DNA of 64,000 bases from a virus (Duplodnaviria; Heunggongvirae; Uroviricota; Caudoviricetes). The stretch covers positions 1-64,000 of the IMG/VR virus record IMGVR_UViG_3300033121_001642. One strand, given 5' to 3'. The translations under genes and the position numbers were made by a program. Shown here piece by piece: positions 45,043-62,891 of this stretch (position 1 is its first letter; the number at the start of each line of letters is the position of its first letter). A model generated the notes under the pieces. It made no database searches. It worked only from the letters and a program-made list of their open reading frames with translations, and was not told the origin of the DNA.

Positions 45043-48000
45043 ATGCCATTTAAGTTTTTTGCTAGTTTTGAGTTTACTGGATCGCCAACATCTGAGCAGT
45101 TTAGGTTTGCTTATGGCATGGGCGTTATGAAAAACGTTCAAAGTCCCATATCCAATTATCAAACTCTAACAATTAATAACGACGCAATTAATCAGCATAT
45201 TGATAACGCTATTGCTCAAGGATATGAAGCTATTTGTTGGGACGAGAAAAACCCGAGATTTTATCTTTGGAATTCATCAATGACAGAGGCGGAAAAAGAC
45301 GCCGCTCTTGATTGTTTGGTTGAAATATATACAAAATCTAAGGCAAGAGCTATTCAGCAAGGGAGGCCCGATCTCAAAATTGGTTGGTGCGACATTCCGG
45401 GAGGTCATCCAAATAGCTATAACGCACCGTTGCAGTATACTCAAAGTCCAAGCAATCCTACATATCAGTCCAATTATCAATCATGGATTTCTTGGATGAG
45501 TAGGCTTTCACAGAGATACGTTAATGGGCAATATATCTCTTCTCCATTTTCAAATTGTTGTGATTTTGTTGCTCCAAGTTTGTATATATTTTATGGCAAT
45601 AGTCAATCTCTTATTGATGATTGGAAGATTTTTGCAGGTGTAACCCTTGATCAAATGAGGCTTAGGATAGCCAATGGGAAGCCTATTTATTCTTTTTGTT
45701 CATTTTCGTTTCATCCATCTTTTGTATATGTTGGAACAATGGCAAGCTATAATAATATGTCTCAAATGATTGCTTTATCTAAGCAAAAAGCTGACGGCAT
45801 AATTATGTACGGCGGGGCCAATGCAAGTTATAGATATGACAATTGGTTTTGGAGACCGTCTGGAGCGAACGAGGCAGCAGACTTAACTACTTGGAGAACC
45901 GTAACGAATGGTTCGTTTTCTATAACCATTGCCAATGTAAAACTAAAAATACAAAACATTAACACTTCGTCGGCGGTGTCAATGTCTCAGGTTGCCTCAG
46001 TTTTACAATCTGCAATACAGTCAAAAATTAGTTCTAGACCAAATCCTGCATATGACGGATATTATCCATTTCCTTTAGGGACCGTTACCGTAACATGGTC
46101 TTCTTCCCAAAAAGGCTTCTTGTTCAATATGACAACAAATGGATCTTCTACCCCAATGCCTCCAAACTTCCACAGAGGCTTGTTTACTATTGAGTCAAAA
46201 AATGCTTGGGGAGGGAATATAAGCGGAACGGATTTGGCAATTAGCCAGTTTATAGGAGTTCCAACAACAAATACCGCGGGGTTGCCTGGTAACACACAGT
46301 GGTTATATGGCGGAACTCAAAATAATATGGAATGGAGAGATTATGCTGAAGATCAAGACTGGTGGCAGTCTTATAGCGAAGCGTCTCTGGAAAATTCAGA
46401 GCTAAAAGATTTCAAATATTTTATATCTTCCGCCTATGCGGGTCAGCCTTCTTTTACTAGCTTTGAAACTTATGGAATTAATTTTATAAAAACAGGAGGA
46501 ATAACTCCGTTTGTTGAGAGTTACTCTCAAGCCGCAACAACACTTCTTACAAGTCCTTTAACTATTAGCGACAGCAACATTAATGCTGGAATTCTAGCGT
46601 ATCTTGATCCGTCTCTTGGTAGTAACCAATCATTTTATTATGCATATGATTTAGAGCAGTTTCAATCATATATTGATCCAACATCAAATTCTGATACTGT
46701 TATAGATAACATGCTAGAGTCGTTTAATAGAGCTTATACAAGAACAAAAGAACTTCTTGCGGTTCGTGGTATTAGCGATGTAAAGATAGGTTTTTATTTC
46801 AATCCAAACTTCAAAAGCTATTACGATCCTGTTCTTTACTGGTATACAAAAGGTAATAGTTTAGATTACACAACAAACTATAATACTTGGGTTTCTAAGT
46901 TTAGAAGAGTTAATCTTAGAAAATCAGGCGCAACTTATTATACAAAGAAGTTTTCAGATTATACCGATTTTATAACTTGTGAAGTTTGTCCTTTTTACGG
47001 AGAGCAAGACCCTCTTGATGATATTTACTATAAAGAGAACATTATCCAAGCAGCAAGATATACCGCAGCAAATAAGCCTCTATATGTTTTTTTGAATCCT
47101 TCTTTTCATTTTTCCACTCCTTGGTGTTCAAAGCTCGTAAGCGGAAATTACATGATCAAGATGCTTTCTTGGTGCAAAAGAATTGCTGACGGAGCTATTG
47201 TTCGGTCTGTTTATAGACCAAGCTATAGAAGGGCAAGAATGCGTCATTTTATGACAGCCTCAGGAGGCCCTCCTGCCGTTCCTTCTAAAACTCTTGCTGA
47301 TTGGCAGTCTATCACAAATGGTTGTTTTAATTATTTCGCGCAAGGATATACTAGATCGATTACAGACATTAATTTTTCAATAGCAACGAGCATTGGAGGG
47401 TTGGAATCAACGAGTGTTGCAAACATTATTGAATCAGCAATTAATGCTGATTTGTACTATATAAACAATTTCTTTCCAACCACAACCGCATATCCAAGCT
47501 TGTCATATTCAAGACCATATGAAGTCGGAAGCGTTGTTGTTTCTTATCAATCAAGCGTTTCCAACAACACCCCATTATCTTCAACTCAGGTTCCGTGTTT
47601 TGAGTTTACTTACACAACCCCTTCTATTCAGTCCCCTCCCGATCATAGCTCGTCTGAGGGGCGAGAATTTTTATATTGCTATGGTTATTCAGGATCTTTG
47701 CCTATTGGAGGAACAGATATAGGTTCCGCTCTTTGGATAGGAACATATTATAATACAGATCAAGAATATGATAGCAATGTTTATGCTGGTCAAGATTTTG
47801 ATTCAAATGAATGGTCTAATGGGTGGGTCGTTGGAAATGATTGGTGGCACGCTTTCTCCTCAATGGCAACTTCAGATAAATACACAAGAGATAGATCTAT
47901 AGCTGTTATGGAGAATTTTGGTTCTACAACATCCAATGGCATTATTAGGAGTTTTTCTGGCATGCCAACTGTTCCTCAATTAAAAGCTCAATACAATATT

Positions 48001-51000
48001 ATTAGAGCATATACCGCTTATACTTCCGATACGTCTTGGTCTCAATATACAGATCCATTTATTGACGCAAAGCTTGATGCTTTTATTGCTGAAAAAGCAG
48101 ATATATTTGTTTGGGATATCGAAGGCTCTTATTGCAATGTAACAGTAAATAGCCCAGATTGGGTTTACGGAGTCTCAGAATCTGAAGTTGACGCTAACCT
48201 TGAGCAATTCAAAAGTCTGTATACAAGAACGAAAATTAGAGCCGGATTGAAGGGCATATCAAATATTAAGGTTGGTTTTTATGGAACACCATTTACAGCC
48301 AATAGTTATTATGGAGCTTATTATTGGGGAAGCGGCGGCCTGGCCCACTCTGTTCCTGGTTCTGTTTTTGACGCAAGTATGAGAAGAATTAATCAGAGAT
48401 ACCAAAATGGGGTATATGTTACAACTCCTTTTGAAGATTATAATGACTTTTTTGCGCCTTCATTATATCCGCTATACCAGGGCTGGACAGCGGCAGAGAC
48501 AAATGAGATTTATGTTGTAAAAGGCTATATTGAAAAGATTATAGAAGTATTTGGAAAATCTAGACCCATATATCCATTTGTTCTTCCAACGTTTTCTGAA
48601 CAAGAAGGAGTAAATGCATTTTTGGGCATGGCTCAAAACTCAACTCTTTCTCAAGGAATGTATACTCAAATATTAGATTCAGGTGCTGACGGACTTATTA
48701 TGTGGTATTCAAAACAACCAAGCTTGTATACAAGTAATCATATATTTATTCCAAGCGTAAATAAAACTCTTTCTGATTGGCAATCTATCACGAATGGTTG
48801 TTTTATTATTGCTGTTGACGGTTATCCCGTTAAGGTTGAAGGTATAAATTTTTCAACAGCGGCAAGCATGACCGATGTTGCTCAAAAAATACAAGACGGA
48901 TTAAACAACAAAATAGCCACAATAACAATAGTTACAGCGTCAGACGGCTCTACATGGAATTCTGGATCTCCAACATCTCCTAGAAACATAGGAAATGTTA
49001 CAGTTGCTTGGGACTCGTTAAATCTTAGGTTTGTAATGAACACCACGAGAGGAACCTTGAAATCACCTAGCGGAATGGTGTTCCCGCCAGATTTTGACAA
49101 AGGATATTTTGTTATTAAGTCATGGACAGCCTGGACCGGAGGTTCTTCTCCTGGTTTTGATATAGGAGTTGACGAGTGGATAGGTCGTCACGACGTTTGG
49201 ACCGATTTGACAAGCACAAGAACAGACGCGGTTGGTGAGTTCGGAAAATGGATCGAGGACTCTCGTTGGTGGAATTCTTATAAGTCAATAGCTCTTGGAT
49301 CTTATGGAACAAATATATCCAACAGAATACTCCCCTTTATAAACGTTGTAACACCCTCTTCTGGAGATGCTCCTTTCACCGTTCATGTTGATGCCATTAA
49401 TTCTTATTTCAATGGAGTTGATATACAAGACTGCACATTCGAATGGGATTTTGGAGACAGCAATCCTCCTGTTTCTGTTATTTCAAGAACCATGATTTCA
49501 GATCCAAGAGTTGATTTTGATTTCAATTCTGACGGGATCGCTCATAGAAAAACGTCGCTATCTAGTAAACAAAGAGGCATTAATGCCGCTTATACTTATT
49601 ATCACGACAATGGCGGTAGTCCGTTTACAATAACTTTAAAGATATGGCACAATGGCGCTGTTAGCTCCACCGTTTCTACAACCGTTGTTGTTTCAAGCCC
49701 AACAGTGGACTCTTATCCGACTAACAATCCTAATAATTGGGTTTTATTGAAGGTCGTTCCAGAGCAGATTTCTCCTCCTGCGAATACCTTTCAAACAATA
49801 GACGCCGCTATTTCTTGGATTAATTCAAATAGAACTAACGGCAAGGCAATTATTGAACTCTTGCCAGGATATAGCGGTTCTGGTAATTTGAATTTTCCTA
49901 TTAATGGAAAAATTACAATAAGTAAACCAAATATCTTGATTAGAGCCTCAACAGTATATTCAACACAGAAGCCAAGAATCGTTGCCAAAAATGGCTCTTT
50001 TACTAGAAGTTCTCCAACGGCTTTGTTTGAGCTAGCGGCAACTGCGTATAATGTTATTTTCCAAGACATTCAATTTGGAGCGTCTGCTAATGTTGCAGGA
50101 GATCCTGGTGGTTTTGAACAGGGAAGCGATAATACTTCTAACCTTATAGGATGTGTTGTAAAATCTCCGGCTTCTGCCACCACAAACACAAGTAATATAA
50201 CGTTTTCGAACTGTACGTTTAGAAATCTTTATCAAGCCGTTACGACATCGCACTTTGTAACTGGTGTATATTTTAATCAATGTCATACGTCAACAACAAA
50301 GATCAAGAGCTACGACTTTATAGGTTGTAATTTTGTTATCAACAAAGGAGTCCATGCAACCTTGAGTGGTTTTGAGGCTGGTGGCTCATTGGCTCTTGCT
50401 GTAAGAACACCGGCTGACTCTCCAATTAACTTTGGAGCAGATAGCAGTCTTGCAGAAAAACTTTCTATGAATTTTTGTAGAATAGATCACTTTGCAACAT
50501 TTCATGGATCTTTAATATCTTCTTCAGGCCCTGTCAATTTATACAACGCAAGATACGTCACTGTTTATGGTTCTATTTTACAAGATGGTTCGAACAATTT
50601 AAACGATGTTTTTTCAGTTAGGTTTGATTCAAATGAAATGTTAGCTGGTGGAACTAAAAGCTTGTTTGTTGTAACAGCACCTTCTTCGGATATAACTATA
50701 GTTAATAATATTTTAAGGCCAAACTCGTATACGGCCGGTTCCAGAATAAACTCTGGTTTATTTGAGTTTGGCGGATCTTATGGTCTTATAAATAATCTTA
50801 AAATAGGAAACAACACAGCAATAGCTGATGTGAATACAAGCTATCAAAAAGCCTTCTGGAATTTTACCACAGCAACAGGCGTTGGTTTGAGTAATATTGA
50901 ATTTGTAAATAATCTCAATACAGAGCATGGTGGTTATTGTATATCTAGATGGATTTCTGTTGGAAATAATGTAGGCCAGTTTGGCAAATTTAGTAATAAT

Positions 51001-54000
51001 ATATGGCCGCAGAGATTTGGTTTTATGGATTTTGCTTTTATTAATGGAACTATAAAAACATGGGATCAATGGGTGTCTGCTGGATACGAAGACAGTCCGT
51101 CTCAGTTTGAGGTTATAACGGTAAGTTTGCAGTCAGTTTACAAATATAAGCTTGATTCTGCAACCAACACTCCTTTGGCGACGACATCTATTTTATATCC
51201 TGCGGCTTGTAAGGATTTTAATGACGAGTTTAGAGGGTCGTTTAATTGCGGTGTTGGAGCAACAAAACCATATGCTCTTTCTTATTCAACGGCTGCGTTC
51301 ACGGTTTCGCCAAATGTTACAACAAGAACAAGAACAACAGAGCCAGGATGGACACCTCCGTCAGGTTGCCAAAATGCCTTTGTTGCCATTACAGATCCTG
51401 TTACAAACACAATTGATAATAATTTTGCAATAACTCAGAAGCCGGTAATCAAAAAGCTTTCAGCTAATGTTTTAGAAATGGTTGATTTTATTCCAGTTGG
51501 TTATTCTTCTTCAAGAGCTTATAGAGTAAAGTTTGACCCAAGCGGTAACGCAAATATAATAGATGCGTTCTTTGGAATGCTATGGGAAGGAGGAGTCAAG
51601 AAACTTGGAGCTATTTTTATTAGAAATGATTATGTTGCTTTTTCTATAACAAACATACCTATTGGATCTTATACAACTATTACTGATCTTTTCAATGCGG
51701 TTTCTTCGGCTATAAACACTTTATTTGTTAATAATAACCTTGGCAATCCGTCTGTTATTATAGATCTTTTTGGATGCGGATATCTTTCTCCGTCTTTATT
51801 GGCATTTCCTTCGAGCAGCGTAACGAGCATATACACAACAGGTTCGAGGTGCTACAATGTTTGGACTTTTGCTTCTTTTTCAAACATCACTCTTGGCAAT
51901 TATATTAAAACAACAATATCAGTGACCCCAACCACTGACGGATATGATGCATTAATAACTTACACAAACGACGGCCCGTCTGGAGCGAACGACAGCGTAA
52001 CGGGTGATATAAGACAAAGAATAGGAGTTATTAGGGTTGAAGGTATTCTTTCTGGATACAAAGGTAAACTCTTGCTGACCAATGACGGAACGAGACTTTC
52101 TAATTATGATACTTCATTTATGAACTATTTTGGATCTGGTATTTTGTATCCATTTGATAAGTTTTCTCCTGTTACGGTTGCGATAGGAGAAACATACGCT
52201 GTTGGCGTTTCTCTTTTGTATAATTTTGCAACAAGTCATTTGTATAATCAAGAGTTTATTGGGCAATACGGAGGAGGTATTGTCAATAGACTATCTTGGT
52301 TGACAAATCTCGATAGCGATAATCTTTCTGCCGTTAATGCTGACTGTTTGGCTCGCGGCCAATCTATGCAGGTAACCGTTTCTGTTAGAGTTACTAGAAA
52401 TATTAGAGACTGGGTTAAAACTCTTGCTCCATATAAAGCTTATTTTGCAGCTACATACGGGTCTGTCAATTATATTAAAGACCCTCGCCCTATTCGCCCC
52501 ATAACACCTGCCGCCACCCACAGCGGTCAGCCATTGTATTTTCATGGGCACGAAGATCAAAATAATCAAAACCCAGCCCGTTGGGGTTGGGCTTGGTATG
52601 CTAATAAGATAAAATATCTATATAATACTCTTGGGTACGAAAGATTTTTTATGTGGTGTCCTGCTGGGTTGTACTATAATGGAAACGGAGCGAATTACCC
52701 GTCCATTGTTTTAACGCCATTTTTTGATACAATAGGAAAATTCCCGCACTCTTCTAGCGCAGCAATATCAGATAGTTGTTATACTTTACTTAATAACGTT
52801 TGTGTTCCTGGAACGTTTACTATAAATTCAGATTTGTTTAAGGGAACAATATATATGCTGAGAGACGCAATACAGGAAGTTCCCATGTTTGGTTTCTATC
52901 AAGGATATGGTACTATTGTTCATAAAAAATGGAATCCAGCACGCAGCGATATTGTTGGATTCAAGGACATATCTTCTGCTGAAATTATGAATTATGCAAA
53001 TAATGAATTACACTTAATGTCTTATTATGCAAAAACAAACATGATAGGCCTTGACGCATATGCCTCAGGTACGCAAGACGGGCTTATACAAAACAAAAGA
53101 GCGCTTGATTTTATAGGATACAAATATGACGGGTTGAAACTTCTTGCTGAAAAATCTCTAGAAGACGTAACAAGCATTAATTGTATAAACTATTTGTTCT
53201 CTCCAGAACTTCAATCAGGACCAAATGTTGTTGCAGATTATATTGTTCCTGGACACGAAAGCCTTGCTATGCTTTATCCAAATCTTTCTTGGTCTGATTT
53301 TCCAGCAGGAACATATAATGAAGGTCAAATAAAGAACATGCTTGCGGCTTTTGCAAGATGGGGTTATGTTGTTGGAAGCGTAGATAACGAAATACATTCT
53401 TCTCCAAAATCGTCTCTTGTTGATGCTTCAGTTTTTAACTCTGCTGACATGCGATTTGTTTATGATCAAAAACCTGCAAGCGTTTTGTCTCTTGCAGCCC
53501 CTTCTGGTTTGCAACACAAGATTATTGATGCGGTTGTTAATAATGATTATCCAGACGTTCATCAACAATCAATTATTTTATCATGGAACGCTAATACCGA
53601 AACCGATTTTAGCCATTATGTTGTTTCTAGACCTAGAATAATAAATGGAGAACCAGATTTTGATCTTCCATATCAAGAAAAGCTATATACGAAAAATACC
53701 ATCTTTGTTGATTATCAAGTTTTTCCTGCGAAAACATATTATTATAAAATTGTTGCATATGACGTAGACGGCAATGCTTCTTCTCCAACTTTTTATGAAG
53801 TAACCCATATAGCTGACGATCCAATACTTAATCCACCAAAGAATGTTTCTTCAACAGCTAATATTGGAGATGGCAATATTGTTGTTACATGGGACGCTCC
53901 TTCGTCCGAGTTTGAACCCTCTTCTACCAATAGAGTACCTCCAAAGTTTATTATACAAGGAAGCAGTAGAGCGGCTGATCTTGATAATGAGCTTTTTGAT

Positions 54001-55281
54001 TTGTCAAATACCTACATACTTGTTAGCGCTCCAATATCGACAGGCGATTCTGACGCAAGAACGATGGATCAGCGCGCTCAGTTTGCTAGAGATCTTATTG
54101 TTGAAATAAGAAATAAGTGGGCTTCTGTAAGGCCTGGTCAGCCATTTAGATGGGCTTTTTGTCCGCAAGGGTTCGGCTTGTATAATTGGGGAAGCTCTAA
54201 CACTTCTCTGTTTAGACACTCTGGCGACTTCTTGCTTGGTGGTACTTGCTTGTGGACAGCTAGCGGTATAGCAGAGGCAAGGTCTAGAATGCTAACATAT
54301 TTTGGGTTGTTAGCCAATTATTTATCTCAAAATGGCATTCCTGCGCCTTTGTATATTGATCCAATGTTTGAAGGAGATAGCGGGGCTTCTTTGGCTGGCG
54401 GCAATTGGAACAATAGACTACTTTGGCACGGCAACCTTATGGCAGATAGCCGTTCTACAAATGAGTTGTTTGATGGAACTATAACATATGCAGAGTATAT
54501 AGGTTCTTTGAAAGATTTGGATAATATTTCCATTCCAACTTCAGAGTTGTATCCTTATATATACGACACTTCTTTTACTTCTTCAAAGAGAGTTCACGTT
54601 TATAGCAGTATTGAGTCTAGAAGAACTGATTGGGCTCTTTATAAATCGCTGTTTGAGCCAGCAAAATCTGTATGGCCTAATGTTATATGCGGTAATTATT
54701 CTTTGTTCGGTTCTACTAGACAATATCTTGGAAGCGTAAGAAGATTCAGAGAAAGCCCTGTTGATTTTGGTCAATATATGAAATCCGATGTTCAAGTTTT
54801 GCCAAATTATAAATGGCAGGTTATTGACGGAAAGAGCCTTCCTTCAGGATATGGTTATAATACATATATTGAGAATTCTTTGAAATATAACATAGACCTT
54901 AATAAAACCAAAAATTCTAATGAAATAGTAAAAGCCATGAGAATAGGGTCTCTTGATTATGCGCTGAAAGGTTGCGAAGGAGCTAACCCTAACAAACCAG
55001 TGGCTACTTGGTTGCAGTATAATAATATACCAGTTATATATAACGATCTTTACGAAGGCTCCAGTCCAAAATATCCAGCAAATTTTAGAGCATGCATTAT
55101 TGATGATAGAGATCACATGATGGGGCTGTTTAGGGTTCTAAACAAGAGAAACATATCTATAGTTGGATGGTACTGCGGTCAAACTCTTGGTTCTAGCAAT
55201 ACGCAAGAGGATACTTCGGATACTTATAGCAAGATATATGAGGTTATCAGTAATCTTAATGAAGCTGGTTATGTTGTTTGA
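45043..55281 (+). CDS. giant (3412 aa) tail-fibre/depolymerase-like protein: three tandem ~700-aa repeats (TIM-barrel glycoside-hydrolase-like module + 'L(T/S)xW(Q/R)(S/T)(I/V)TNG(C/S)F' module), PKD-like domain (WDFGDS), right-handed beta-helix repeats, FN3 domain, long C-terminal region
   Basis: Internal repeats ..ADGIIMYGGANAS / ..DGAIVRSVYRPS / ..DGLIMWYSKQPS; PKD FEWDFGDSNPP; FN3 LSWNANTETDFSHYVV..TYYYKIVAYDVDGNASSP; NxTFxNC beta-helix rungs. Confidence 0.8.
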   Translation: MPFKFFASFEFTGSPTSEQFRFAYGMGVMKNVQSPISNYQTLTINNDAINQHIDNAIAQGYEAICWDEKNPRFYLWNSSMTEAEKDAALDCLVEIYTKSKARAIQQGRPDLKIGWCDIPGGHPNSYNAPLQYTQSPSNPTYQSNYQSWISWMSRLSQRYVNGQYISSPFSNCCDFVAPSLYIFYGNSQSLIDDWKIFAGVTLDQMRLRIANGKPIYSFCSFSFHPSFVYVGTMASYNNMSQMIALSKQKADGIIMYGGANASYRYDNWFWRPSGANEAADLTTWRTVTNGSFSITIANVKLKIQNINTSSAVSMSQVASVLQSAIQSKISSRPNPAYDGYYPFPLGTVTVTWSSSQKGFLFNMTTNGSSTPMPPNFHRGLFTIESKNAWGGNISGTDLAISQFIGVPTTNTAGLPGNTQWLYGGTQNNMEWRDYAEDQDWWQSYSEASLENSELKDFKYFISSAYAGQPSFTSFETYGINFIKTGGITPFVESYSQAATTLLTSPLTISDSNINAGILAYLDPSLGSNQSFYYAYDLEQFQSYIDPTSNSDTVIDNMLESFNRAYTRTKELLAVRGISDVKIGFYFNPNFKSYYDPVLYWYTKGNSLDYTTNYNTWVSKFRRVNLRKSGATYYTKKFSDYTDFITCEVCPFYGEQDPLDDIYYKENIIQAARYTAANKPLYVFLNPSFHFSTPWCSKLVSGNYMIKMLSWCKRIADGAIVRSVYRPSYRRARMRHFMTASGGPPAVPSKTLADWQSITNGCFNYFAQGYTRSITDINFSIATSIGGLESTSVANIIESAINADLYYINNFFPTTTAYPSLSYSRPYEVGSVVVSYQSSVSNNTPLSSTQVPCFEFTYTTPSIQSPPDHSSSEGREFLYCYGYSGSLPIGGTDIGSALWIGTYYNTDQEYDSNVYAGQDFDSNEWSNGWVVGNDWWHAFSSMATSDKYTRDRSIAVMENFGSTTSNGIIRSFSGMPTVPQLKAQYNIIRAYTAYTSDTSWSQYTDPFIDAKLDAFIAEKADIFVWDIEGSYCNVTVNSPDWVYGVSESEVDANLEQFKSLYTRTKIRAGLKGISNIKVGFYGTPFTANSYYGAYYWGSGGLAHSVPGSVFDASMRRINQRYQNGVYVTTPFEDYNDFFAPSLYPLYQGWTAAETNEIYVVKGYIEKIIEVFGKSRPIYPFVLPTFSEQEGVNAFLGMAQNSTLSQGMYTQILDSGADGLIMWYSKQPSLYTSNHIFIPSVNKTLSDWQSITNGCFIIAVDGYPVKVEGINFSTAASMTDVAQKIQDGLNNKIATITIVTASDGSTWNSGSPTSPRNIGNVTVAWDSLNLRFVMNTTRGTLKSPSGMVFPPDFDKGYFVIKSWTAWTGGSSPGFDIGVDEWIGRHDVWTDLTSTRTDAVGEFGKWIEDSRWWNSYKSIALGSYGTNISNRILPFINVVTPSSGDAPFTVHVDAINSYFNGVDIQDCTFEWDFGDSNPPVSVISRTMISDPRVDFDFNSDGIAHRKTSLSSKQRGINAAYTYYHDNGGSPFTITLKIWHNGAVSSTVSTTVVVSSPTVDSYPTNNPNNWVLLKVVPEQISPPANTFQTIDAAISWINSNRTNGKAIIELLPGYSGSGNLNFPINGKITISKPNILIRASTVYSTQKPRIVAKNGSFTRSSPTALFELAATAYNVIFQDIQFGASANVAGDPGGFEQGSDNTSNLIGCVVKSPASATTNTSNITFSNCTFRNLYQAVTTSHFVTGVYFNQCHTSTTKIKSYDFIGCNFVINKGVHATLSGFEAGGSLALAVRTPADSPINFGADSSLAEKLSMNFCRIDHFATFHGSLISSSGPVNLYNARYVTVYGSILQDGSNNLNDVFSVRFDSNEMLAGGTKSLFVVTAPSSDITIVNNILRPNSYTAGSRINSGLFEFGGSYGLINNLKIGNNTAIADVNTSYQKAFWNFTTATGVGLSNIEFVNNLNTEHGGYCISRWISVGNNVGQFGKFSNNIWPQRFGFMDFAFINGTIKTWDQWVSAGYEDSPSQFEVITVSLQSVYKYKLDSATNTPLATTSILYPAACKDFNDEFRGSFNCGVGATKPYALSYSTAAFTVSPNVTTRTRTTEPGWTPPSGCQNAFVAITDPVTNTIDNNFAITQKPVIKKLSANVLEMVDFIPVGYSSSRAYRVKFDPSGNANIIDAFFGMLWEGGVKKLGAIFIRNDYVAFSITNIPIGSYTTITDLFNAVSSAINTLFVNNNLGNPSVIIDLFGCGYLSPSLLAFPSSSVTSIYTTGSRCYNVWTFASFSNITLGNYIKTTISVTPTTDGYDALITYTNDGPSGANDSVTGDIRQRIGVIRVEGILSGYKGKLLLTNDGTRLSNYDTSFMNYFGSGILYPFDKFSPVTVAIGETYAVGVSLLYNFATSHLYNQEFIGQYGGGIVNRLSWLTNLDSDNLSAVNADCLARGQSMQVTVSVRVTRNIRDWVKTLAPYKAYFAATYGSVNYIKDPRPIRPITPAATHSGQPLYFHGHEDQNNQNPARWGWAWYANKIKYLYNTLGYERFFMWCPAGLYYNGNGANYPSIVLTPFFDTIGKFPHSSSAAISDSCYTLLNNVCVPGTFTINSDLFKGTIYMLRDAIQEVPMFGFYQGYGTIVHKKWNPARSDIVGFKDISSAEIMNYANNELHLMSYYAKTNMIGLDAYASGTQDGLIQNKRALDFIGYKYDGLKLLAEKSLEDVTSINCINYLFSPELQSGPNVVADYIVPGHESLAMLYPNLSWSDFPAGTYNEGQIKNMLAAFARWGYVVGSVDNEIHSSPKSSLVDASVFNSADMRFVYDQKPASVLSLAAPSGLQHKIIDAVVNNDYPDVHQQSIILSWNANTETDFSHYVVSRPRIINGEPDFDLPYQEKLYTKNTIFVDYQVFPAKTYYYKIVAYDVDGNASSPTFYEVTHIADDPILNPPKNVSSTANIGDGNIVVTWDAPSSEFEPSSTNRVPPKFIIQGSSRAADLDNELFDLSNTYILVSAPISTGDSDARTMDQRAQFARDLIVEIRNKWASVRPGQPFRWAFCPQGFGLYNWGSSNTSLFRHSGDFLLGGTCLWTASGIAEARSRMLTYFGLLANYLSQNGIPAPLYIDPMFEGDSGASLAGGNWNNRLLWHGNLMADSRSTNELFDGTITYAEYIGSLKDLDNISIPTSELYPYIYDTSFTSSKRVHVYSSIESRRTDWALYKSLFEPAKSVWPNVICGNYSLFGSTRQYLGSVRRFRESPVDFGQYMKSDVQVLPNYKWQVIDGKSLPSGYGYNTYIENSLKYNIDLNKTKNSNEIVKAMRIGSLDYALKGCEGANPNKPVATWLQYNNIPVIYNDLYEGSSPKYPANFRACIIDDRDHMMGLFRVLNKRNISIVGWYCGQTLGSSNTQEDTSDTYSKIYEVISNLNEAGYVV

Positions 55282-55293
55282 TAAGGGGTATTT

Positions 55294-57318
55294 ATGATTT
55301 TGCCTATAGATTTTGCATACTATGAAATTTATCGATCAAATCAATCTGATGGTGTTTTCTCTTTAATAGGGACTTCTACAACAGAGGATTTTGTTGATTC
55401 GACTGCTGCTCTTGGAAATACATATTGCTATAAGGTTGTTGCTGTTGATATTTATGGTAACAGATCAGAATCAAGCACGGTCACTTGTGTTTTTTTTTCG
55501 ATTCAGGGACCAACCCCGGACGGGGGCCAGCAAACAATTGTCAATCCTACCGCAATACTTTCAAAGGACAACGTTGTTTGCGTTTATCGAGAAGGGGACG
55601 CAGACAGCCTGTCGTCCGCATTGCGATATAAAGAGATTCATGGCCTTGAAGATAACCAATTGATAGCTATAGCATGTTCTAATAGAGAAGTATTATCAGA
55701 TTATATAGAGTTTCAAGAAGAAGTAGAAGACCCTATAAGATCTGCTATAACAAGCTATCCAGTTTCTGATCGAAGTGTTTATGCAATTGTTTTGATGCCA
55801 TATGTTCCTGGTGGGTTTAGAGACGGTTCTGATGTTGTGTCTTCAACATCGAGGCTTTCTAGAATATTTTACCCATTTGAAAAGAATGCTGTTAATCCGG
55901 TTTATAATAGGCAAGTATTTAATAGGTTTGACGGTTTTGATGCTTTGCAATCTTTGATTTGCACAAGAATTGATGGACCAAACATTATTACAGCCTCTTG
56001 GTTTGATAATATTGAAACAGCAAAAGGAAGATCTCAGGTTGGGGGTAAGTTTTATTTTGATCCATATTCATCTTATTCATTTGAAGGAGCTTCTGATTAC
56101 TCGTTAGAGCTTCTTGATTTTAGAGACAATTATATAGGAAGGCTTGGTTTAGCAATCGAGACAACCTCTCAATCTTTTCCTTCTATAGATCCTTTTTTCT
56201 CTCAAATTGAAGGAGATTCGTTTTTCTGGGGATGGGGCGCTGACAGAGGTTCTTTGGGTTATTTCCAGGCAACGGCGGAAACGAGAGCTTTCTTTTACAA
56301 CGCTGATTTTGACGGCGGATTTTCTATAAGAGACTTGGACGCTCGCTCTTGGCCTATACTTGCCATAAGGCAAGGGTATACCGCTGCGGCAGGATCTATG
56401 TCTGGAGCAAATGCGCGTGCCTTTTTGAGGCCTGTTCCTTTTATGGACGCTCTTTTTAGAGGAGCAACAATGGGCGAGGCCATGTTCTTTTCCCAACCTC
56501 TTTTAAATTCTACAATAGCTTGCTTTGGTGATCCGTTGGCTTTCTATTCTTTTCCTGTTTCGTTTGCAGAAAGAATTCTTTTGTCTCCCCCAAAGGCGTG
56601 GGATAATATGGAAAATTGCTTGGCCGAAGCTGTCGCCTGTATATACAGAAAAGCAAAAGTTCTTGACAATCTTCGAACGTATGTAGCAAGCGGATCGGAC
56701 GAGTTTATTCAAGAAGAATTGATATATCCATTCGATCAGTTGTCCGCAGAGTTTGATGATTTATCGTGGAGAAATGATTTTGTTCAATTAACAGGAAAGC
56801 TTGTTAATTTCGTTGTTGATAAGAATGCGACCGCTTATGATTTTGCATATCCTAATCTTAATCAGTATTTGACATATACTGGTACCAGGGTCTCTGGTAT
56901 TGTTTTAGAAACTCTTCAAAATCAGAGCCTAATAGGCTCGATTGTTCCGACGAACATAGAAACCGTTGGGTCTTGGAATTTTGAAACTACTCTTCAACAC
57001 TATCCTGGTGATTTTAGGTTCTACCATTTTGAATTACAGATCGCTAGAGAATATGACGATTTTGATAAAGGCAACATATTGATATCAAAAGATACTTTTG
57101 TTGATACAACTAACTGGTATTTTGAAGATTATAATGGAAATTTTCAACCCTTTTCTAGTAACGGCATAACCAGTAATTATGAAGATAAGAAGATAAGATA
57201 TGTAAATCAATCTTCTGAACTTTTGATTCGAGGAGAGTTTTATTGGTTTAGAGTTAGGCAGAAAGATGAATTGCAAGAGTTTGATTGGAGATTTTCTAGA
57301 GAGATTATTTATCTATAA
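55294..57318 (+). CDS. hypothetical structural protein beginning with the C-terminal half of an FN3 domain (DFAYYEIYRS..NTYCYKVVAVDIYGNRSESS)
   Basis: Same frame as upstream giant gene after a TGA TAA double stop; FN3 strands C-G only. Confidence 0.7.
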   Translation: MILPIDFAYYEIYRSNQSDGVFSLIGTSTTEDFVDSTAALGNTYCYKVVAVDIYGNRSESSTVTCVFFSIQGPTPDGGQQTIVNPTAILSKDNVVCVYREGDADSLSSALRYKEIHGLEDNQLIAIACSNREVLSDYIEFQEEVEDPIRSAITSYPVSDRSVYAIVLMPYVPGGFRDGSDVVSSTSRLSRIFYPFEKNAVNPVYNRQVFNRFDGFDALQSLICTRIDGPNIITASWFDNIETAKGRSQVGGKFYFDPYSSYSFEGASDYSLELLDFRDNYIGRLGLAIETTSQSFPSIDPFFSQIEGDSFFWGWGADRGSLGYFQATAETRAFFYNADFDGGFSIRDLDARSWPILAIRQGYTAAAGSMSGANARAFLRPVPFMDALFRGATMGEAMFFSQPLLNSTIACFGDPLAFYSFPVSFAERILLSPPKAWDNMENCLAEAVACIYRKAKVLDNLRTYVASGSDEFIQEELIYPFDQLSAEFDDLSWRNDFVQLTGKLVNFVVDKNATAYDFAYPNLNQYLTYTGTRVSGIVLETLQNQSLIGSIVPTNIETVGSWNFETTLQHYPGDFRFYHFELQIAREYDDFDKGNILISKDTFVDTTNWYFEDYNGNFQPFSSNGITSNYEDKKIRYVNQSSELLIRGEFYWFRVRQKDELQEFDWRFSREIIYL

Positions 57319-57329
57319 ATGAGGAATAA

Positions 57330-60300
57330 ATGGCCTGGAATGCTAACATATCAATAAATTCAGACTCCTTCGGTTATGCGCCGTTTACTGTTTTTGTATC
57401 AGCAAGCGGCAGCAGCTTTGATGTTTACACCTCTCAGGATGTTGAGTATCTTTGGGATTTTGGAGATCCCTCGCCTCCTTTGAACGGAAATCAAGATAAT
57501 GAAAGGTATTATTCAAATCCTTCAGGGTATCAAGATCTAGACTTAATAAACGTAACAACCAATCAACCTGTTACTGGAAATTTTAAGAACAAAACTAAAT
57601 TTCCTATCCCAACAATTGATTCAGACGTAGATAATACAGGACACTCAAAGTGTAGCGGCTATTCAAACACAATGCAAAGAGGATCAACTGCTGCTTATAC
57701 TTATTATCACGATAATGAAGGTAATCCGTTTACGATAACTTTGAGAATTTTTTATGGAGGCGTAGAGGTTGCAAGCAGTAGTCTTGAGGTATCCGTATCG
57801 CCGTCTACAGTTTACAATTCGTGGACAAATGCAGAAATTACCAATCCTGTTGATACTATAAATCAAGACGGTTCGTATGTTAGTTTGAAAATAAATCCAT
57901 ATTACACCAATCCTGGGCAAGACGACGATAGCGACTCAGAGTGTAACGAGTTTGCAACGCTAGCAAAAGCTATTTCTTGGGCAAACAACTGGCACCCAAA
58001 CTTTGTTAGATATGTTCTTACTAATGATAGCGATGTTTATGATTTTAGTATTTCTGCTCCAATATACATTGAGGGAAGCGATCAAATTATAACGGTTTCT
58101 GACTATCAATACTCGAATCGTTTTTCACTGGTGTCTGACTACAATCCTGGCGCTGAAGAAAATTTGATAACACTTAAGGGGCATAGAGTATATATAGAGA
58201 ACATAACTATAAAAGGCTATGGTCCAACTTCAAGCTCTGAGCTTGTTGGTGTTTTTATTGACGCCTCTCAAGAAGAGGCTTGTTTTCATAATTGTTCTTT
58301 TTCTGGATTAAAAATTGGTATTTCAATAAACGGATTAAAATGCTATTTAAATAGAATTCTTTGTTCTGTTAGCGGATCTGATTATCTTTTTAAGGAGAAC
58401 TTCATAAAAGGATCTGAAACAGAGAATCTTGTTATGACAAATTTAGAAGTATCTAGTTTTTCTGATACAACAAGAACGCTGTATGAAAAACAAGGCAAAA
58501 TGATTGATATTGCTCGTTCCAGTTATATTGTTTTACAGTGGTCGTATTTTGACAACGCTCTAACTCTTGAAAATGGATACGCCTCGCCTGGTGGAGATTC
58601 TTTGGCGTATGGCTTTTTGTATGATACATTTGACGAACTATCGGCAGGTGCGTTTAGGTTTTATATAAATACAAATTTTGATATTTGTTCTAATTGCTTT
58701 ATAAGAGGATGTTCGGAAATTGATGATTGTTTTTATGCGAGACTGGCAGGCAATTATTTTTCTGGCGCAGGCGGAGGACAGAAATCAGATCCAAGCACAG
58801 TTGTTCAAAAAAGAGCTTGTTTATATCTAAACAATCAGCAAAACAAAATTAGTATTGTTAGTAATATCTTTGAGCTAAAATACAATAACATGCTTTGTTC
58901 TGCTATTTTGTTTGAACCAACATCCTCTAAGCATCAAGTTTCAATTTTGAATAATATGTTTTTACTATGGTCAAATGTCTCAAAATATTCTGCTGTTTGT
59001 GATTTTGCCGCAGACGCTTCCGCTCTCGAAGATTTTGTTTTTAGTCAAAATATATTTGTTGAAAACAAAATTAATTGTATGTCAAACTACATTTCTTATA
59101 ACACAGATCAAATCAATGGCAAGATATATGATAACATTTATCCAAAATCATCGAGTCTCGAAAACGTTAGAGCGGCGCTGATCGACGGTGTTCAAGTTGA
59201 TTGTAAGACATTTTTTGAATTATACGAATCAAAGTTTTTTGTCATAGAAATAGAAGACTGTTTGCCAGAAAGATCTTTTGCTTTAGATTTGTTAAAGTAC
59301 GAAGCTTTTGCGGAAGTTTCCCCCATTGGTTCTGTTGTTAGAAACTATTCGCTAGAACTGCTTGATTCGTCCATATCTCAAAGGTTTTGTGCCTCCTCTT
59401 TCGTTAATTTTTCAAACGATTCTTCTCAGTTTAGCGTTTCGTCTTCGCTGTCATATAGAAGCCGACCAACAAATATAAACGCCGTTGCAAATGATTCTCA
59501 TAATCTTATATTTGAGATAAGAGATCCTTCTTTTATTGAACAAGACAATGACGGAGTTACTTCCGCAAAAATAATTATTGGGCAATCGTATGGGTTGTCG
59601 GAATCCGAAGCTGCTGAAAATCCATATATTTCTCTTTTGAATGGAGTTGGAGACTATATAAAGACAACAATTTCTACTTCCGTTAAATCAGACGGAATAG
59701 ATATTACTGTTGTTTATACCAATGACGGTCCATTATCTCAGGTTCTTGGGTCTGCTGCTCAAAAAATGGGAACCATAGATATTGACGGAGTATTTTGCGG
59801 AAGAAATCTTTCGTTGCTAACAGATTTGAATGGAATGAGTTTTAATAGCTATATGTTTCACGCAAAACAAGAGCTTGATACAAGCAATGACGATAGGAGA
59901 TATCCATACAAATTTGCTCCTATTAGTTGTTATCTTTTGAAAAACCATGCAGTTGTTGTTTCGTGGACCGCTGATTATGTAAACTCTGATAAAATGTTTC
60001 AAGAAATAACTTCGTCCAGATCAGAATCTGAAGGGGTTGTTTATTCTAGAGGTAAAACTCAGATAGAGTGGTTGGCAAATACAGGAAGTTCTGTTTCTTA
60101 TTATAATGATTGTTTGCAAAAAGGAGATTCTTTTTCCATAACCATATCTGTTAGGATTACAAGAGATCCGTCTAAATGGGTTTTGAAAGCTCAGCCTTGG
60201 AAAGATTATTTACAATCCAATCATGAAATGGTTCACACCAGAGACCCAAGACCTGTCTTTTTAGAAATTATGACAACGAATCCAGGCTCGACTCCATTGT

Positions 60301-61562
60301 TACTTAATGCTTCTTACAATATACCTTCAACAGGATATTCGTCTTACATAGATAACGTTATTTCAAACGTTGTTAATAAGAATTATCAAAGGTATATGGT
60401 TTGGGAGATTCTTGGTAACAATGAAAATGGATTAAACTATTATCCTCAGATTTTGACTCCAATATACAGAAGTCAGTATCCCTGGACTGGATATCCAAAT
60501 ATGCTTTCTTCAATATCTGGTTTGCAAAGACTTGGCGAAGAGATCTCTCAGTTTGGTTTTTATCAAGGTTACGGAGATTTGACTGCAACAAGCTCAACTA
60601 TATATGGACCGTCTGTTGAGTATGAAACTATTGATTTTACAGATACCGCACGAATGCAGAAATTCTATGACGAGCTAGATCTTGCTTCTGATTTATTTTG
60701 GGCAAATTCTCTGGGCTTGGATTCCTTTGGAACTATTTTTAACCAAAACCAAATGAAGAACGCATTGGATCTTATGGATGTGTATAAGGAGCGATATCCA
60801 AATATGTCTTTGTTGGTAGAGAAAGCAAAGCAAGACGTTTTTTGTTTTAGGGGTGCTTCGTGTTTGTTTTCTTATGACGGGGTGTACGGACCTCATCATC
60901 TTGCAAACTTTTTAGTTCCAGGAAACGAACATTGGTGTATCGATTATGGCATTGAAGGATCGGATTTGAGCCTTGTTGAAGCAGAGGTCTTGTATAGACT
61001 TGAGGCAATAGCGTCTTATGGCTATGTGGTTGGCGGTTATGATTTGAGCGCTTATTCCAATCTCAACCCTTTATCTTCTAGCTTTGAGGCGATTGATAGA
61101 AGATTTGATTTTGTAGAAGTTCCTTCTAATTATACTTCGACTGTTGCTCCTTCCTCTCCGATTGGTCTTAGGTATGGTTTGTATAATAAAGAAAGAAATA
61201 CAACATACACAACCGATAGAAAATATATAAAGATATTTTGGGATGCCAGCGAAGACCCGGATTTTAGCCACTACATCGTTTATAAATGTAAGATTTCTAA
61301 TCAGGTAATAGACTCAACGACCGCAAATTTCGTTAGAAGACAATATACAAAAAATCCGTTCTTTTACGATACGGCGGTTAGAGTAAATTCGACTTATTAC
61401 TATCAAGTTTCTGCTGTCGATGTTTTTGGTAACGAATCAACCAAATCAAGCGTTCTTGTTGTTCCGTTTGTTCCTGATGATCCTGTTTTGGAGCCGCCGT
61501 CTTCTGTAATTGCAGTAGGAGATGTTGATCAAAATGCAATAACAATAAGTTGGAGTTCATAA
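57330..61562 (+). CDS. 1410-aa paralog of the C-terminal two-thirds of the 45043 gene: PKD-like (LWDFGDPSPP), beta-helix, shared C-terminal blocks (RDPRPV, FGFYQGYG), FN3 ending ..ITISWSS-stop
   Basis: Blocks alignable by eye with the giant gene (AAYTYYHDN(G/E)G(S/N)PFTITL(K/R)I). Confidence 0.75.
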   Translation: MAWNANISINSDSFGYAPFTVFVSASGSSFDVYTSQDVEYLWDFGDPSPPLNGNQDNERYYSNPSGYQDLDLINVTTNQPVTGNFKNKTKFPIPTIDSDVDNTGHSKCSGYSNTMQRGSTAAYTYYHDNEGNPFTITLRIFYGGVEVASSSLEVSVSPSTVYNSWTNAEITNPVDTINQDGSYVSLKINPYYTNPGQDDDSDSECNEFATLAKAISWANNWHPNFVRYVLTNDSDVYDFSISAPIYIEGSDQIITVSDYQYSNRFSLVSDYNPGAEENLITLKGHRVYIENITIKGYGPTSSSELVGVFIDASQEEACFHNCSFSGLKIGISINGLKCYLNRILCSVSGSDYLFKENFIKGSETENLVMTNLEVSSFSDTTRTLYEKQGKMIDIARSSYIVLQWSYFDNALTLENGYASPGGDSLAYGFLYDTFDELSAGAFRFYINTNFDICSNCFIRGCSEIDDCFYARLAGNYFSGAGGGQKSDPSTVVQKRACLYLNNQQNKISIVSNIFELKYNNMLCSAILFEPTSSKHQVSILNNMFLLWSNVSKYSAVCDFAADASALEDFVFSQNIFVENKINCMSNYISYNTDQINGKIYDNIYPKSSSLENVRAALIDGVQVDCKTFFELYESKFFVIEIEDCLPERSFALDLLKYEAFAEVSPIGSVVRNYSLELLDSSISQRFCASSFVNFSNDSSQFSVSSSLSYRSRPTNINAVANDSHNLIFEIRDPSFIEQDNDGVTSAKIIIGQSYGLSESEAAENPYISLLNGVGDYIKTTISTSVKSDGIDITVVYTNDGPLSQVLGSAAQKMGTIDIDGVFCGRNLSLLTDLNGMSFNSYMFHAKQELDTSNDDRRYPYKFAPISCYLLKNHAVVVSWTADYVNSDKMFQEITSSRSESEGVVYSRGKTQIEWLANTGSSVSYYNDCLQKGDSFSITISVRITRDPSKWVLKAQPWKDYLQSNHEMVHTRDPRPVFLEIMTTNPGSTPLLLNASYNIPSTGYSSYIDNVISNVVNKNYQRYMVWEILGNNENGLNYYPQILTPIYRSQYPWTGYPNMLSSISGLQRLGEEISQFGFYQGYGDLTATSSTIYGPSVEYETIDFTDTARMQKFYDELDLASDLFWANSLGLDSFGTIFNQNQMKNALDLMDVYKERYPNMSLLVEKAKQDVFCFRGASCLFSYDGVYGPHHLANFLVPGNEHWCIDYGIEGSDLSLVEAEVLYRLEAIASYGYVVGGYDLSAYSNLNPLSSSFEAIDRRFDFVEVPSNYTSTVAPSSPIGLRYGLYNKERNTTYTTDRKYIKIFWDASEDPDFSHYIVYKCKISNQVIDSTTANFVRRQYTKNPFFYDTAVRVNSTYYYQVSAVDVFGNESTKSSVLVVPFVPDDPVLEPPSSVIAVGDVDQNAITISWSS

Positions 61563-61563
61563 T

Positions 61564-62346
61564 TTGCCAGGTGATTTCTCTCATTACAATATTTATCGCT
61601 CTGATACCGGAACGCCAGGTACTTTTGTATTTATTGGCACGGCAACAAGCATGTCATTTGTTGATACTGACGTTGTTTTGGGTAACACCTATTATTACGT
61701 TGTTACAGTTGTAACGTATTATCTTATAGACGATCTCATTACTTATGAGGAGTCGCTTTCTAGTTCTGTTTTTTCTATAACGTTTGAGGCCCCACCGTCC
61801 CCGCCTCCTCCTCCTCCTCCTCCTCCTCCGGTTGCTCCTCCTGTTGTTCCTCCAAGAGGGCCTGTTCCGGACGCCGGGCATAGAATAGGAACATATGATT
61901 ACAGAGTAATAACGGACGCCATAGCCGAATCTTATGATCTTGGTAAAAAGTGTCTCGATCCTCTTGTTTGTATGTATAATAATTTACAAAACTGCGATGT
62001 AAATGTTCGCCAAAGACATAGGATGGAGCTTGAGAGCTTCTTAAGAAAAACATATGCTTACATAATTTACAAACATCTTGATAGTCAACAAACTATGTAT
62101 AACGCAGTCCGAGCATTGAATGTCCATGTAATGAGAGAATATGGAGAAGCGTATGGGTATGACAGCATGGACGAGTTTCTCATAGATCAGTTTTTAGAGG
62201 TTCCGTTGACCTATGCGATTCTTTCAGAACAGGTCGGATATTCGATAACTGTGATAGGAGATGCTAGAGCCAGATGGTCTGACATGCATCTTCTTTGGAA
62301 GGATATAACCCTTCCAATGAACAAGATAGGATGGGAGAACCTTTAG
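61564..62346 (+). CDS. protein starting (TTG) with second half of FN3 (PGDFSHYNIYRS..NTYYYVVTVV), poly-Pro linker, C-terminal domain; may be a +1 continuation of 57330..61562
   Basis: FN3 strands A-B end the upstream ORF and strands C-G start this one, 1 nt out of frame. Confidence 0.55.
   Translation: MPGDFSHYNIYRSDTGTPGTFVFIGTATSMSFVDTDVVLGNTYYYVVTVVTYYLIDDLITYEESLSSSVFSITFEAPPSPPPPPPPPPPVAPPVVPPRGPVPDAGHRIGTYDYRVITDAIAESYDLGKKCLDPLVCMYNNLQNCDVNVRQRHRMELESFLRKTYAYIIYKHLDSQQTMYNAVRALNVHVMREYGEAYGYDSMDEFLIDQFLEVPLTYAILSEQVGYSITVIGDARARWSDMHLLWKDITLPMNKIGWENL
61804..61827 (+). repeat. (CCT)8 trinucleotide microsatellite encoding a poly-proline linker
   Basis: Read directly; in frame. Confidence 0.9.
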
Positions 62347-62360
62347 TTTGAGGAATTTTC

Positions 62361-62891
62361 ATGAGTTCGTCTCTAAGCGACAAAACCCCTGCCCAATCGT
62401 GTAATGACCTTCTGTATCTCAATAATGACAATATAGGAGTCACAAGCGATCTAGTAACCGTTTATGGCGGTAACGGCATTCCTACGCCGTTAAAGCTGTC
62501 CACAGAAAAAATGGAGGCCTCGTTCAATAAGGGGGCTTTGGTAAAACCCGTTATTGATTCGTACCATCTAAAGTACAACGACATAGGAGAAGTTGGAGCT
62601 ACTTATCAAATTAGCACAACTGCTGGCAACGTTCAAAAACTCACGCTTACCGAGAATCTATCGCTAACATTTTTGCATAATTTAGACGAAGGTTCTGCAT
62701 TTGAACTGACCTTGCTTGTTGAGCAGTCAACAGGCGGTCATACCGTTTCGTTTCCGTCTTCGTTTAGAAAACCTGGACAAACAAATATAACCTTATCTTC
62801 GACAGCTAATGCGATAGACGTATTGAAGCTTCTAACATATAATGGTGGAGAAGATTGGTTGGTTTATAAAGAAGCTTCAGATTTGAGGTAA
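62361..62891 (+). CDS. hypothetical protein (176 aa), likely structural
   Basis: ORF with GAGGA RBS. Confidence 0.5.
   Translation: MSSSLSDKTPAQSCNDLLYLNNDNIGVTSDLVTVYGGNGIPTPLKLSTEKMEASFNKGALVKPVIDSYHLKYNDIGEVGATYQISTTAGNVQKLTLTENLSLTFLHNLDEGSAFELTLLVEQSTGGHTVSFPSSFRKPGQTNITLSSTANAIDVLKLLTYNGGEDWLVYKEASDLR

Follow-up and report, generated by a model that had tools for sequence, protein, structure and literature searches.

Close to the 3' end of the DNA stretch that we analyzed, two neighboring genes meet inside what appears to be a single fibronectin type III (FN3) domain. The stretch, which we call the window throughout, comprises 64,000 nucleotides (nt) of a virus of the Caudoviricetes (positions 1 to 64,000 of IMG/VR record IMGVR_UViG_3300033121_001642). 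The upstream gene of the pair, p1410, occupies 57330..61562 on the + strand in the open reading frame (ORF) list and encodes a variable cassette protein of 1410 amino acids (aa), while the downstream gene, p260 (61564..62346, +), encodes 260 aa that make up half an FN3 domain, a proline-rich linker, and a helical C-terminal domain. The p1410 protein ends in ...EPPSSVIAVGDVDQNAITISWSS at a TAA stop codon (61560..61562, +), which is also TAA in all orthologs. Only one base, T61563, lies between this stop and the TTG start codon of p260 (61564..61566, +), which is the first start in its frame and stands in the +1 frame relative to p1410. The +1 frame is open from 61549 only, so the frames of the two genes overlap by just 15 nt. 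The p260 protein begins (M/L)PGDFSHYNIYRSDTG...GNTYYYVVTVV, also given as (M)PGDFSHYNIYRSDTGTPGTFVFIGTATSMSFVDTDVVLGNTYYYVVTVV, and the database gene calls (P0001) yield an identical 260-aa product. A sequence-only reading of the window had already described a p1410 end and a p260 start split in this way by a +1 change of frame, and its coordinates and sequences agree with ours.

The same reading pointed out that a GGAG motif leaves independent initiation of p260 possible, which proved to be right and is the key point of our analysis. The motif lies at 61552-61555, 8 nt 5' of the TTG at 61564, and it belongs to a TGGAG (61551..61555, +) that comes from the Trp-Ser codons of FN3 strand B and doubles as a Shine-Dalgarno-like element. 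Other genes in the window carry GGAG or GAGG 6-10 nt 5' of their starts, and in most of them stop and start codons abut tightly. We found no terminator-like site at the p1410/p260 junction. The arrangement has the features of translational coupling, in that the gap between stop and start is 0-1 nt in most of the lineages we compared (7 nt in one of them, L023) and the ribosome binding site lies inside the upstream ORF.

We placed the two domain halves with an FN3 hidden Markov model (HMM) built in this analysis. The C-terminus of p1410 matches positions 2-24 of this model only, which correspond to strands A-B, and the N-terminus of p260 matches positions 26-100 only, which correspond to strands C-G (E = 6e-35). 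The A-B segment (LEPPSSVIAVGDVDQNAITISWSS; 61488..61559, +) forms the last 24 residues of p1410 and is our proposed plug, and the C-G segment (PGDFSHYNIYRS...VFSITFE; 61567..61788, +) is our proposed socket. When T61560 is skipped, the genes read through as ISWSSNLPGDFSHY, that is, a Trp, six residues, and DFSHY, and the spacing of these elements is identical in the intact FN3 copies of p1410 (IFWDASEDPDFSHY) and of a giant gene farther upstream (LSWNANTETDFSHY). Against four FN3 repeats of P0011 that Pfam annotates, the joined halves align with no gap over the junction (BLASTP, best E = 8e-12). The joined 114-aa segment scores E = 1.5e-4 and 22.3 bits against the Pfam family fn3 (PF00041), slightly short of the curated 25-bit cut-off. 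The earlier claim that the two halves together amount to one FN3 thus finds support in the shared Trp spacing, the gap-free alignment, and the complementary HMM ranges, which together far exceed chance, and on these grounds we conclude that an FN3 domain is cut in its B-C loop by the gene boundary.

We also modeled the joined halves with AlphaFold2 (AF2), linking the real termini covalently by one peptide bond and using an alignment (A7) whose A-B half was covered by four intact FN3 repeats and, besides these, by the window sequence alone, because MAFFT misplaced the short A-B fragments. The resulting model has a mean predicted local distance difference test (pLDDT) score of 76, with values of 75-80 for strands A-B and 78-89 for strands C-G; the joined sequence modeled without an alignment has a mean of 35. 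The covalently joined model shows the marks of the FN3 fold, namely seven strands (residues 14-21, 26-32, 40-46, 55-60, 64-67, 75-96, and 103-106), the strand-B Trp (ISW), and the strand-F TYYY motif. Foldseek superposes it on solved structures of entire FN3 domains over 98-102 columns (TMt 0.73-0.80), among them 3mpc_A (TMt 0.76) and 5l2h (TMt 0.80). By these predictions, the halves form a canonical FN3 when joined.

We compared the junction across about 10 lineages from independent metagenome assemblies, spanning 41-100% protein identity and with the DNA of the loci examined, and a metagenome scan contributed three further loci. When we searched 5.8 billion proteins with the joined query, we recovered seven clusters of p260 orthologs (59-100% identity), all 256-262 aa long, and three C-terminal fragments of p1410, ending ISWSS, ISWSP, and SVSWSS, and the search returned no fused p1410-p260 homolog. 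Nor was a fused form found in an exhaustive HMM search of 1.84 billion representatives, where the proteins carrying the C-terminal domain were all at most 262 aa.

The position of the break is kept among these relatives, although the frame relation is not. In all lineages, the break falls 0-2 residues past the strand-B Trp, the stop codon is TAA, and a start codon (ATG or TTG) follows 0-7 nt on, and in nine aligned junctions a TTGGAG is constant, 6-8 nt 5' of the start. The relation is +1 with a TTG start in two lineages, that of the window, L026, and L009-L012 (TGG AGT YCA TAA T TTG CCA; about 83% nt identity) and that of L008 (TGG AGC TAA A TTG ATT). It is frame 0, with TAA running directly into ATG, in three lineages, as read in L007/L013 (TGG AGT TCR TAA ATG TCA) and L001 (TGG AGT TTA TAA ATG AGT). 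In L023, whose C-terminal domain is 44% identical to that of p260, the relation is again +1, with a 7-nt spacer (AAC TGG TAA ACAATCT ATG GGC). The TAA-ATG and TAA-A-TTG forms are one 1-nt indel apart, and such an indel at the junction would be tolerable or neutral only if p1410 and p260 are read independently, which supports separate translation. The ratio of nonsynonymous to synonymous substitution rates (dN/dS) is 0.08-0.18 for the A-B half, 0.05-0.08 for the C-G half, and 0.05-0.08 for the p260 C-terminal domain (dS 0.4-1.0), and by this measure both halves are under purifying selection, each in its own frame. The sequence-only reading had looked to orthologs, fused or split, for a decision; they are split throughout and carry no frameshift signal.

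That reading had offered three candidates: a programmed +1 frameshift or hop, a recent frameshift mutation or sequencing error, and two polypeptides that reconstitute one FN3. A programmed shift at ...AGU UCA UAA U..., on the model of prfB or SPP1 gp17.1*, would yield a fused 1671-aa fiber with an intact FN3 and would leave the junction peptide ISWSSNLPGDFSHYNIYR. The +1 relation and exact FN3 register of the window and its close relatives speak for such a shift, as do the GGAG just 5' of the stop and the precedent of SPP1, where a tail protein gains an FN3 through +1 shifting at CCC.UAA (PMC6316719). However, a +1 shift cannot fuse the ORFs in the three frame-0 lineages, and the P-site codon is variable (UCA, CCA, AGC, UUA, or UCG), with none of these codons re-pairing in the +1 frame and no slippery codon among them. 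The stop is always UAA followed by U or A, and termination is efficient in both of these contexts, which is not so for the UGA-C of prfB. In addition, the GGAG lies 1 nt from the P-site codon versus 3 nt in prfB, the junction RNA does not exceed shuffled sequence in stability (z = -0.12), and in all orthologs the downstream ORF has its own start codon at the equivalent place, in L023 behind the 7-nt spacer. With a frame relation and a shift codon that vary among orthologs and a downstream start that is always there, we consider programmed frameshifting very improbable. The second candidate holds that a single gene was broken, either by a 1-nt insertion of recent date or by a mistake in sequencing or assembly, and it could appeal only to the 19 nt between TGG and GAT, where 18 would hold the frame. 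Yet assemblies made independently from different samples show the identical junction (the P0001/P0007 gene calls, L026, and L009-L012), the boundary survives in lineages whose protein identity falls to 42% (p1410) and 44% (C-terminal domain), and purifying selection acts on both halves, each in its own frame. A break that recurs in independent assemblies and persists at dS 0.4-1.0 has, in our view, a negligible chance of being a fresh lesion or an artifact.

We also rejected two further mechanisms. Stop-codon reassignment is contradicted by long ORFs that are intact under code 11, by the use of all three stops in the window, and by a frame change that it could not bridge. Readthrough of the TAA is conceivable for the frame-0 lineages only and cannot serve the +1 lineages, which disqualifies it as a common mechanism. 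Given these comparisons, we are highly confident that p1410 and p260 are two separately made proteins, and with frameshift and error both rejected, a pair of polypeptides is the sole candidate left of the three.

Taken as a whole, the explanation that we find probable is that p1410 and p260 are separate, translationally coupled genes, that their boundary has long been kept in the FN3 B-C loop, and that the halves they encode are complementary. The comparison of lineages supports the first part, in which translation of p1410 ends at the TAA and p260 is initiated independently at the abutting TTG (ATG elsewhere), without recoding and aided by the TGGAG within the strand-B Trp-Ser codons. The C-terminal A-B hairpin of p1410 would insert into the five-strand C-G half of p260, and one FN3 sandwich would be rebuilt from two chains as a noncovalent joint. 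It would attach a cassette that is large, exchangeable, and fast-evolving to a small conserved adaptor, in which a flexible polyproline linker follows the socket and precedes the helical domain, within a tail-fiber locus. As for the complementation of the p1410 A-B half by the p260 C-G half, taken by itself, we lean only slightly toward it.

Several observations bear on this proposal. In the window, p260 encodes an incomplete sandwich and p1410 ends in exactly the strands that it lacks, as the HMM ranges indicate, and the pair in L023 is built likewise. The upstream gene of that pair encodes 503 aa and is not a p1410 ortholog, having a weak match to Glyco_hydro_56 and resembling the N-terminal repeats of the giant protein. 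Its product nevertheless ends ...VPQNIDFSIVGGNVRINW*, an A-B hairpin that stops at the Trp, and the adjacent p260-like gene starts MGVNYYEIWR... (MGVNYYEIWRADS...), which is strand C. The A-B hairpin is also kept at the extreme C-terminus of all p1410 orthologs, despite divergence to 42% identity. Across lineages, plug and socket tend to occur together: five have both a cassette with A-B and an adaptor with C-G, five have neither (the C-terminal domain alone, as a protein of ~150-170 aa), two have a C-G adaptor with no A-B cassette (L004/L014 and L024/L025), and none has an A-B cassette with no C-G adaptor. A naive one-sided Fisher test on these about 12 lineages, with phylogeny ignored, gives a p value of about 0.03. 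The retention of the hairpin, the nonorthologous plug of L023, this co-variation, and the AF2 model of the joined halves point to a function rather than a scar and lend complementation indirect support.

Alternatively, p1410 and p260 may be separate proteins whose halves do not pair. On this view, gene fission would have left the boundary behind, or cassettes would be exchanged there by recombination. Homo-oligomerization or strands of a third protein, for instance, would hold the C-G half, and the A-B half would have a role of its own or would only carry the ribosome binding site. This alternative gains from the sockets that have no adjacent plug, both in L004/L014 and L024/L025 and in the neighboring window gene p674, and from the presence or absence of the cassette exactly at this boundary (the window versus L004, and L023 versus L024), which fits a recombination module. 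Moreover, the use of the Trp-Ser TGGAG as the Shine-Dalgarno-like element of p260 would constrain at least those two codons. The conservation extends beyond TGGAG, though, since the whole 24-residue hairpin is conserved as protein, and the hairpin recurs on the nonorthologous cassette of L023, where no GGAG is used. Nor does a plug-ending cassette stand beside a socketless adaptor in any of the 12 lineages. Without strands A and B, one sheet of an FN3 domain is reduced from three strands to one, which leaves the core exposed and makes stability in isolation unlikely. On balance, we regard unpaired halves as unlikely, but as more probable than either a frameshift or an error.

Other points weigh against the complementation of p1410 and p260. 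The lineages L004/L014 and L024/L025 carry p260-like genes with a socket (6001..6771 in L004/L014; 2390..3076 in L024) and no upstream A-B cassette, and the L004/L014 contig was absent from the results of a scan with an alignment of p1410 C-termini. These socket-only lineages are real counterevidence, unless the matching plugs lie somewhere else in the same genomes. In the window itself, p674 has a C-G half even though the giant gene that precedes it does not end in A-B, and together these cases imply that a socket can persist with no adjacent plug or can be satisfied otherwise. Co-inheritance after a single fission event would also give the co-variation counts. A canonical FN3 was the expected outcome of the AF2 modeling, because the chain was covalently joined and the alignment held intact FN3 repeats. 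The C-terminal domain of p260 had no match in Pfam, PHROGs, or PDB sequence profiles, and so none that would assign it a function. Finally, low-level recoding in the window's own lineage may be compatible with the sequence taken alone.

The two proteins differ in their pace of evolution. p1410 is a paralog of residues ~1433-2950 of the giant protein (BLASTP E = 4e-64), and its orthologs in L001, L008, L009, L010, and L013 are 1397-1435 aa long and 42-78% identical to it. Just before its half domain it carries an intact FN3 (residues 1299-1380; 61224..61469, +; FN3 HMM positions 13-86, E about 1e-9). It diverges much faster than p260, with identities of 77% versus 91% to L009/L010 and of 42% versus 65% to L001, and this faster divergence fits a host-range or enzymatic module mounted on a conserved part. 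The p260 orthologs are 256-262 aa long and share 59-92% identity with it. In p260, the socket is followed by the proline-rich linker (APPSPPPPPPPPPPVAPPVVPPRGPVPD; 61789..61872, +), which is partly encoded by CCT repeats, has AF2 pLDDT values below 50, and differs in length and sequence among orthologs. The linker contains a run of ten prolines, partly from a CCT repeat at 61804..61830, which could be slippage-prone. The helical C-terminal domain (~157 aa, GHRIGTYDYR...KIGWENL; 61873..62343, +) is an AF2-predicted helical bundle with a pLDDT of about 90, and the Foldseek matches of the joined model in PDB and BFVD all came through its FN3 part and none through this domain. The family to which the C-terminal domain belongs (IGTxxYR...IGWxNV) is widespread in related phages as stand-alone proteins of ~150 aa (P0032, P0044, P0054, and others).

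A second pair may exist immediately upstream. The 674-aa gene p674 (55294..57318, +) begins with an FN3 C-G half in its first ~57 residues (55303..55464). This N-terminus, MILPIDFAYYEIYRS...TYCYKVVAVDIYGNRS, is 51% identical to that of p260 (BLASTP) and matches FN3 HMM positions 28-82 with E of about 2e-13. The half domain is present in the p674 orthologs of L004, L013, and L015 and absent from those of L008, L019-L021, and L024. Directly before p674 lies the giant gene (45043..55281; 3412 aa), in which the region paralogous to all of p1410 (residues ~1433-2950) is embedded. The giant gene ends ...NEAGYVV*, with no terminal A-B half. It does contain an intact FN3 (53569..53784, +), and 3' of that an internal A-B hairpin (LNPPKNVSSTANIGDGNIVVTWDAP; residues 2929-2953; 53827..53901, +), past which the C- and F-strand motifs of FN3 are missing. 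This succession of intact FN3 and A-B hairpin is conserved in six giant proteins (among them those of L004, L015, L032, L033, and L036). The giant gene and the p674 half domain are both present in four lineages (the window group, L013, whose giant protein is L036, L004, and L015-18) and both absent in four others (L019, L020, L021, and L024), where a dUTPase gene is directly upstream; no lineage is discordant. The p674 half domain may thus find its partner in this hairpin of the giant protein, for which the co-variation is suggestive only. Weighing against such a second pair, the second FN3 of the giant protein could be very diverged instead of truncated.

More generally, a naturally split FN3 may serve this clade of huge phages as a plug-and-socket connector of wide use, with hairpins on exchangeable cassettes (p1410, the 503-aa hyaluronidase-like protein of L023, and the p1410-like module of the giant protein) and with N-terminal C-G halves on conserved proteins of the fiber locus (p260 and p674). 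There would then be at least two joints per virion (p1410-p260 and giant-p674), and the gene boundary would serve both as an assembly interface and as a recombination point for host-range modules. We rate this generalization as somewhat less likely than not.

Locally, the gene order is dUTPase, the 3412-aa giant gene, p674, p1410, p260, a 176-aa gene, and a gene that leaves the window, and the genes of the window lie nearly all on one strand and are tightly packed. The 176-aa gene (62361..62891, +), a conserved neighbor 3' of p260, encodes a tail-fiber-type C-terminal domain. It matches PHROG tail-fiber families with E values of 1e-9 to 1e-12, its orthologs match PF26209, and tblastn links it to annotated tail fiber proteins of isolated phages. 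Orthologs of the gene starting at 62894 are about 1004 aa long (MJ0330_N) and carry an intein in most related loci. Three stretches of the giant protein, one of them at residues ~1229-1335, match part of PF11863 (the N-terminal region of E217 gp31, a tail sheath protein), which suggests that a repeated sheath-type surface domain is reused in the 3412-aa protein of this fiber locus. The 503-aa cassette of L023 resembles these PF11863-type repeats and has a weak hyaluronidase (GH56) match.

Phage hallmarks in the window include a ribonucleotide reductase with a LAGLIDADG intein and the dUTPase. The intein, with its LAGLIDADG homing-endonuclease domain, interrupts the large-subunit gene of the reductase (40774..44421). 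Related contigs measure 333-506 kb, among them those of L001 (ERZ1305919 NODE_1; 495 kb), L027 (506 kb), L018 (494 kb), and L021 (499 kb), and contigs of this size (about 0.5 Mb) place the window in a clade of huge phages. Neither the DNA of the region (by nucleotide search) nor p260 (by tblastn) had a match among 50,697 isolated phage records, so the clade is known only from metagenomes.

In its genetic appearance, the junction resembles the immunoglobulin (Ig)-like and FN3 domains that are added to phage tail proteins by frameshifting. SPP1 gp17.1/gp17.1* is the closest precedent, in which a +1 shift at the slippery CCC.UAA adds a whole FN3 to the tail tube protein and the downstream frame has no start codon (PMC6316719). 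Our system shares with it a tail-associated phage protein, a C-terminal FN3, and a continuation in the +1 frame past a stop, but here the domain is bisected, no slippery codon is present, the frame relation is variable, and p260 always has its own start, as a rule behind a Shine-Dalgarno-like TGGAG. The tests that define the frameshifted class thus fail for p1410/p260. A practical consequence is that a stop codon and a +1 change inside a domain, which mimic a frameshift or an error, should not be "repaired" in annotation or labeled as recoding.

The nearest mechanistic analogue is donor-strand complementation in the chaperone-usher pili (Fim/Pap), where, as proposed here for p1410 and p260, an incomplete Ig-like sandwich is completed by strands of another polypeptide, which makes for a very stable noncovalent joint between subunits. 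In pilins, a single strand (G) is missing, which the following subunit supplies with its N-terminal extension upon hand-over by a chaperone, and the result is a polymer. In p1410/p260, a different protein would donate two strands, its C-terminal A-B hairpin; the fold is FN3, the product would be a heterodimeric pair, and the system is known from sequence. No chaperone or usher is evident for the p1410/p260 system. If the two halves do complement each other, they would constitute a phage counterpart of pilus donor-strand complementation. In the literature we found no precedent for a natural FN3 common to two gene products, and as far as that literature showed, this would be the first natural single FN3 fold to be split over two of them.

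In its proposed role, the pair is comparable to the N-terminal adaptor domains of CBA120/G7C-type tailspikes and to tail-fiber assembly proteins, whose genes lie just 3' of the fiber genes. These likewise involve a variable receptor-binding or enzymatic protein on a conserved virion part, adjacent genes, and exchange of cassettes. Known adaptors dock as complete folded domains, whereas the p1410/p260 interface would be one domain spread across two chains, and we found no relation of sequence or fold between p260 and these adaptors in Pfam, PHROGs, PDB, or BFVD. Such an interface, if real, would explain how huge phages gain and lose large fiber or enzyme cassettes while the attachment site stays unchanged.

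The closest likeness in design is to engineered split domains. Fragments of an engineered FN3 reportedly come back together with high affinity (Dutta, Koide et al. 2005, Protein Sci 14:2838, cited in PMC11666773), which speaks for complementation here, and SpyTag/SpyCatcher is a docking pair derived from a split CnaB2 domain. In both, a beta-sandwich cut in a loop is rejoined as a docking device, but these are laboratory constructs, while the p1410/p260 pair would be natural and evolutionarily maintained, with no isopeptide chemistry implied. If our reading is true, the two halves would be a natural analogue of such engineered connectors and could be used as an orthogonal protein-docking pair.

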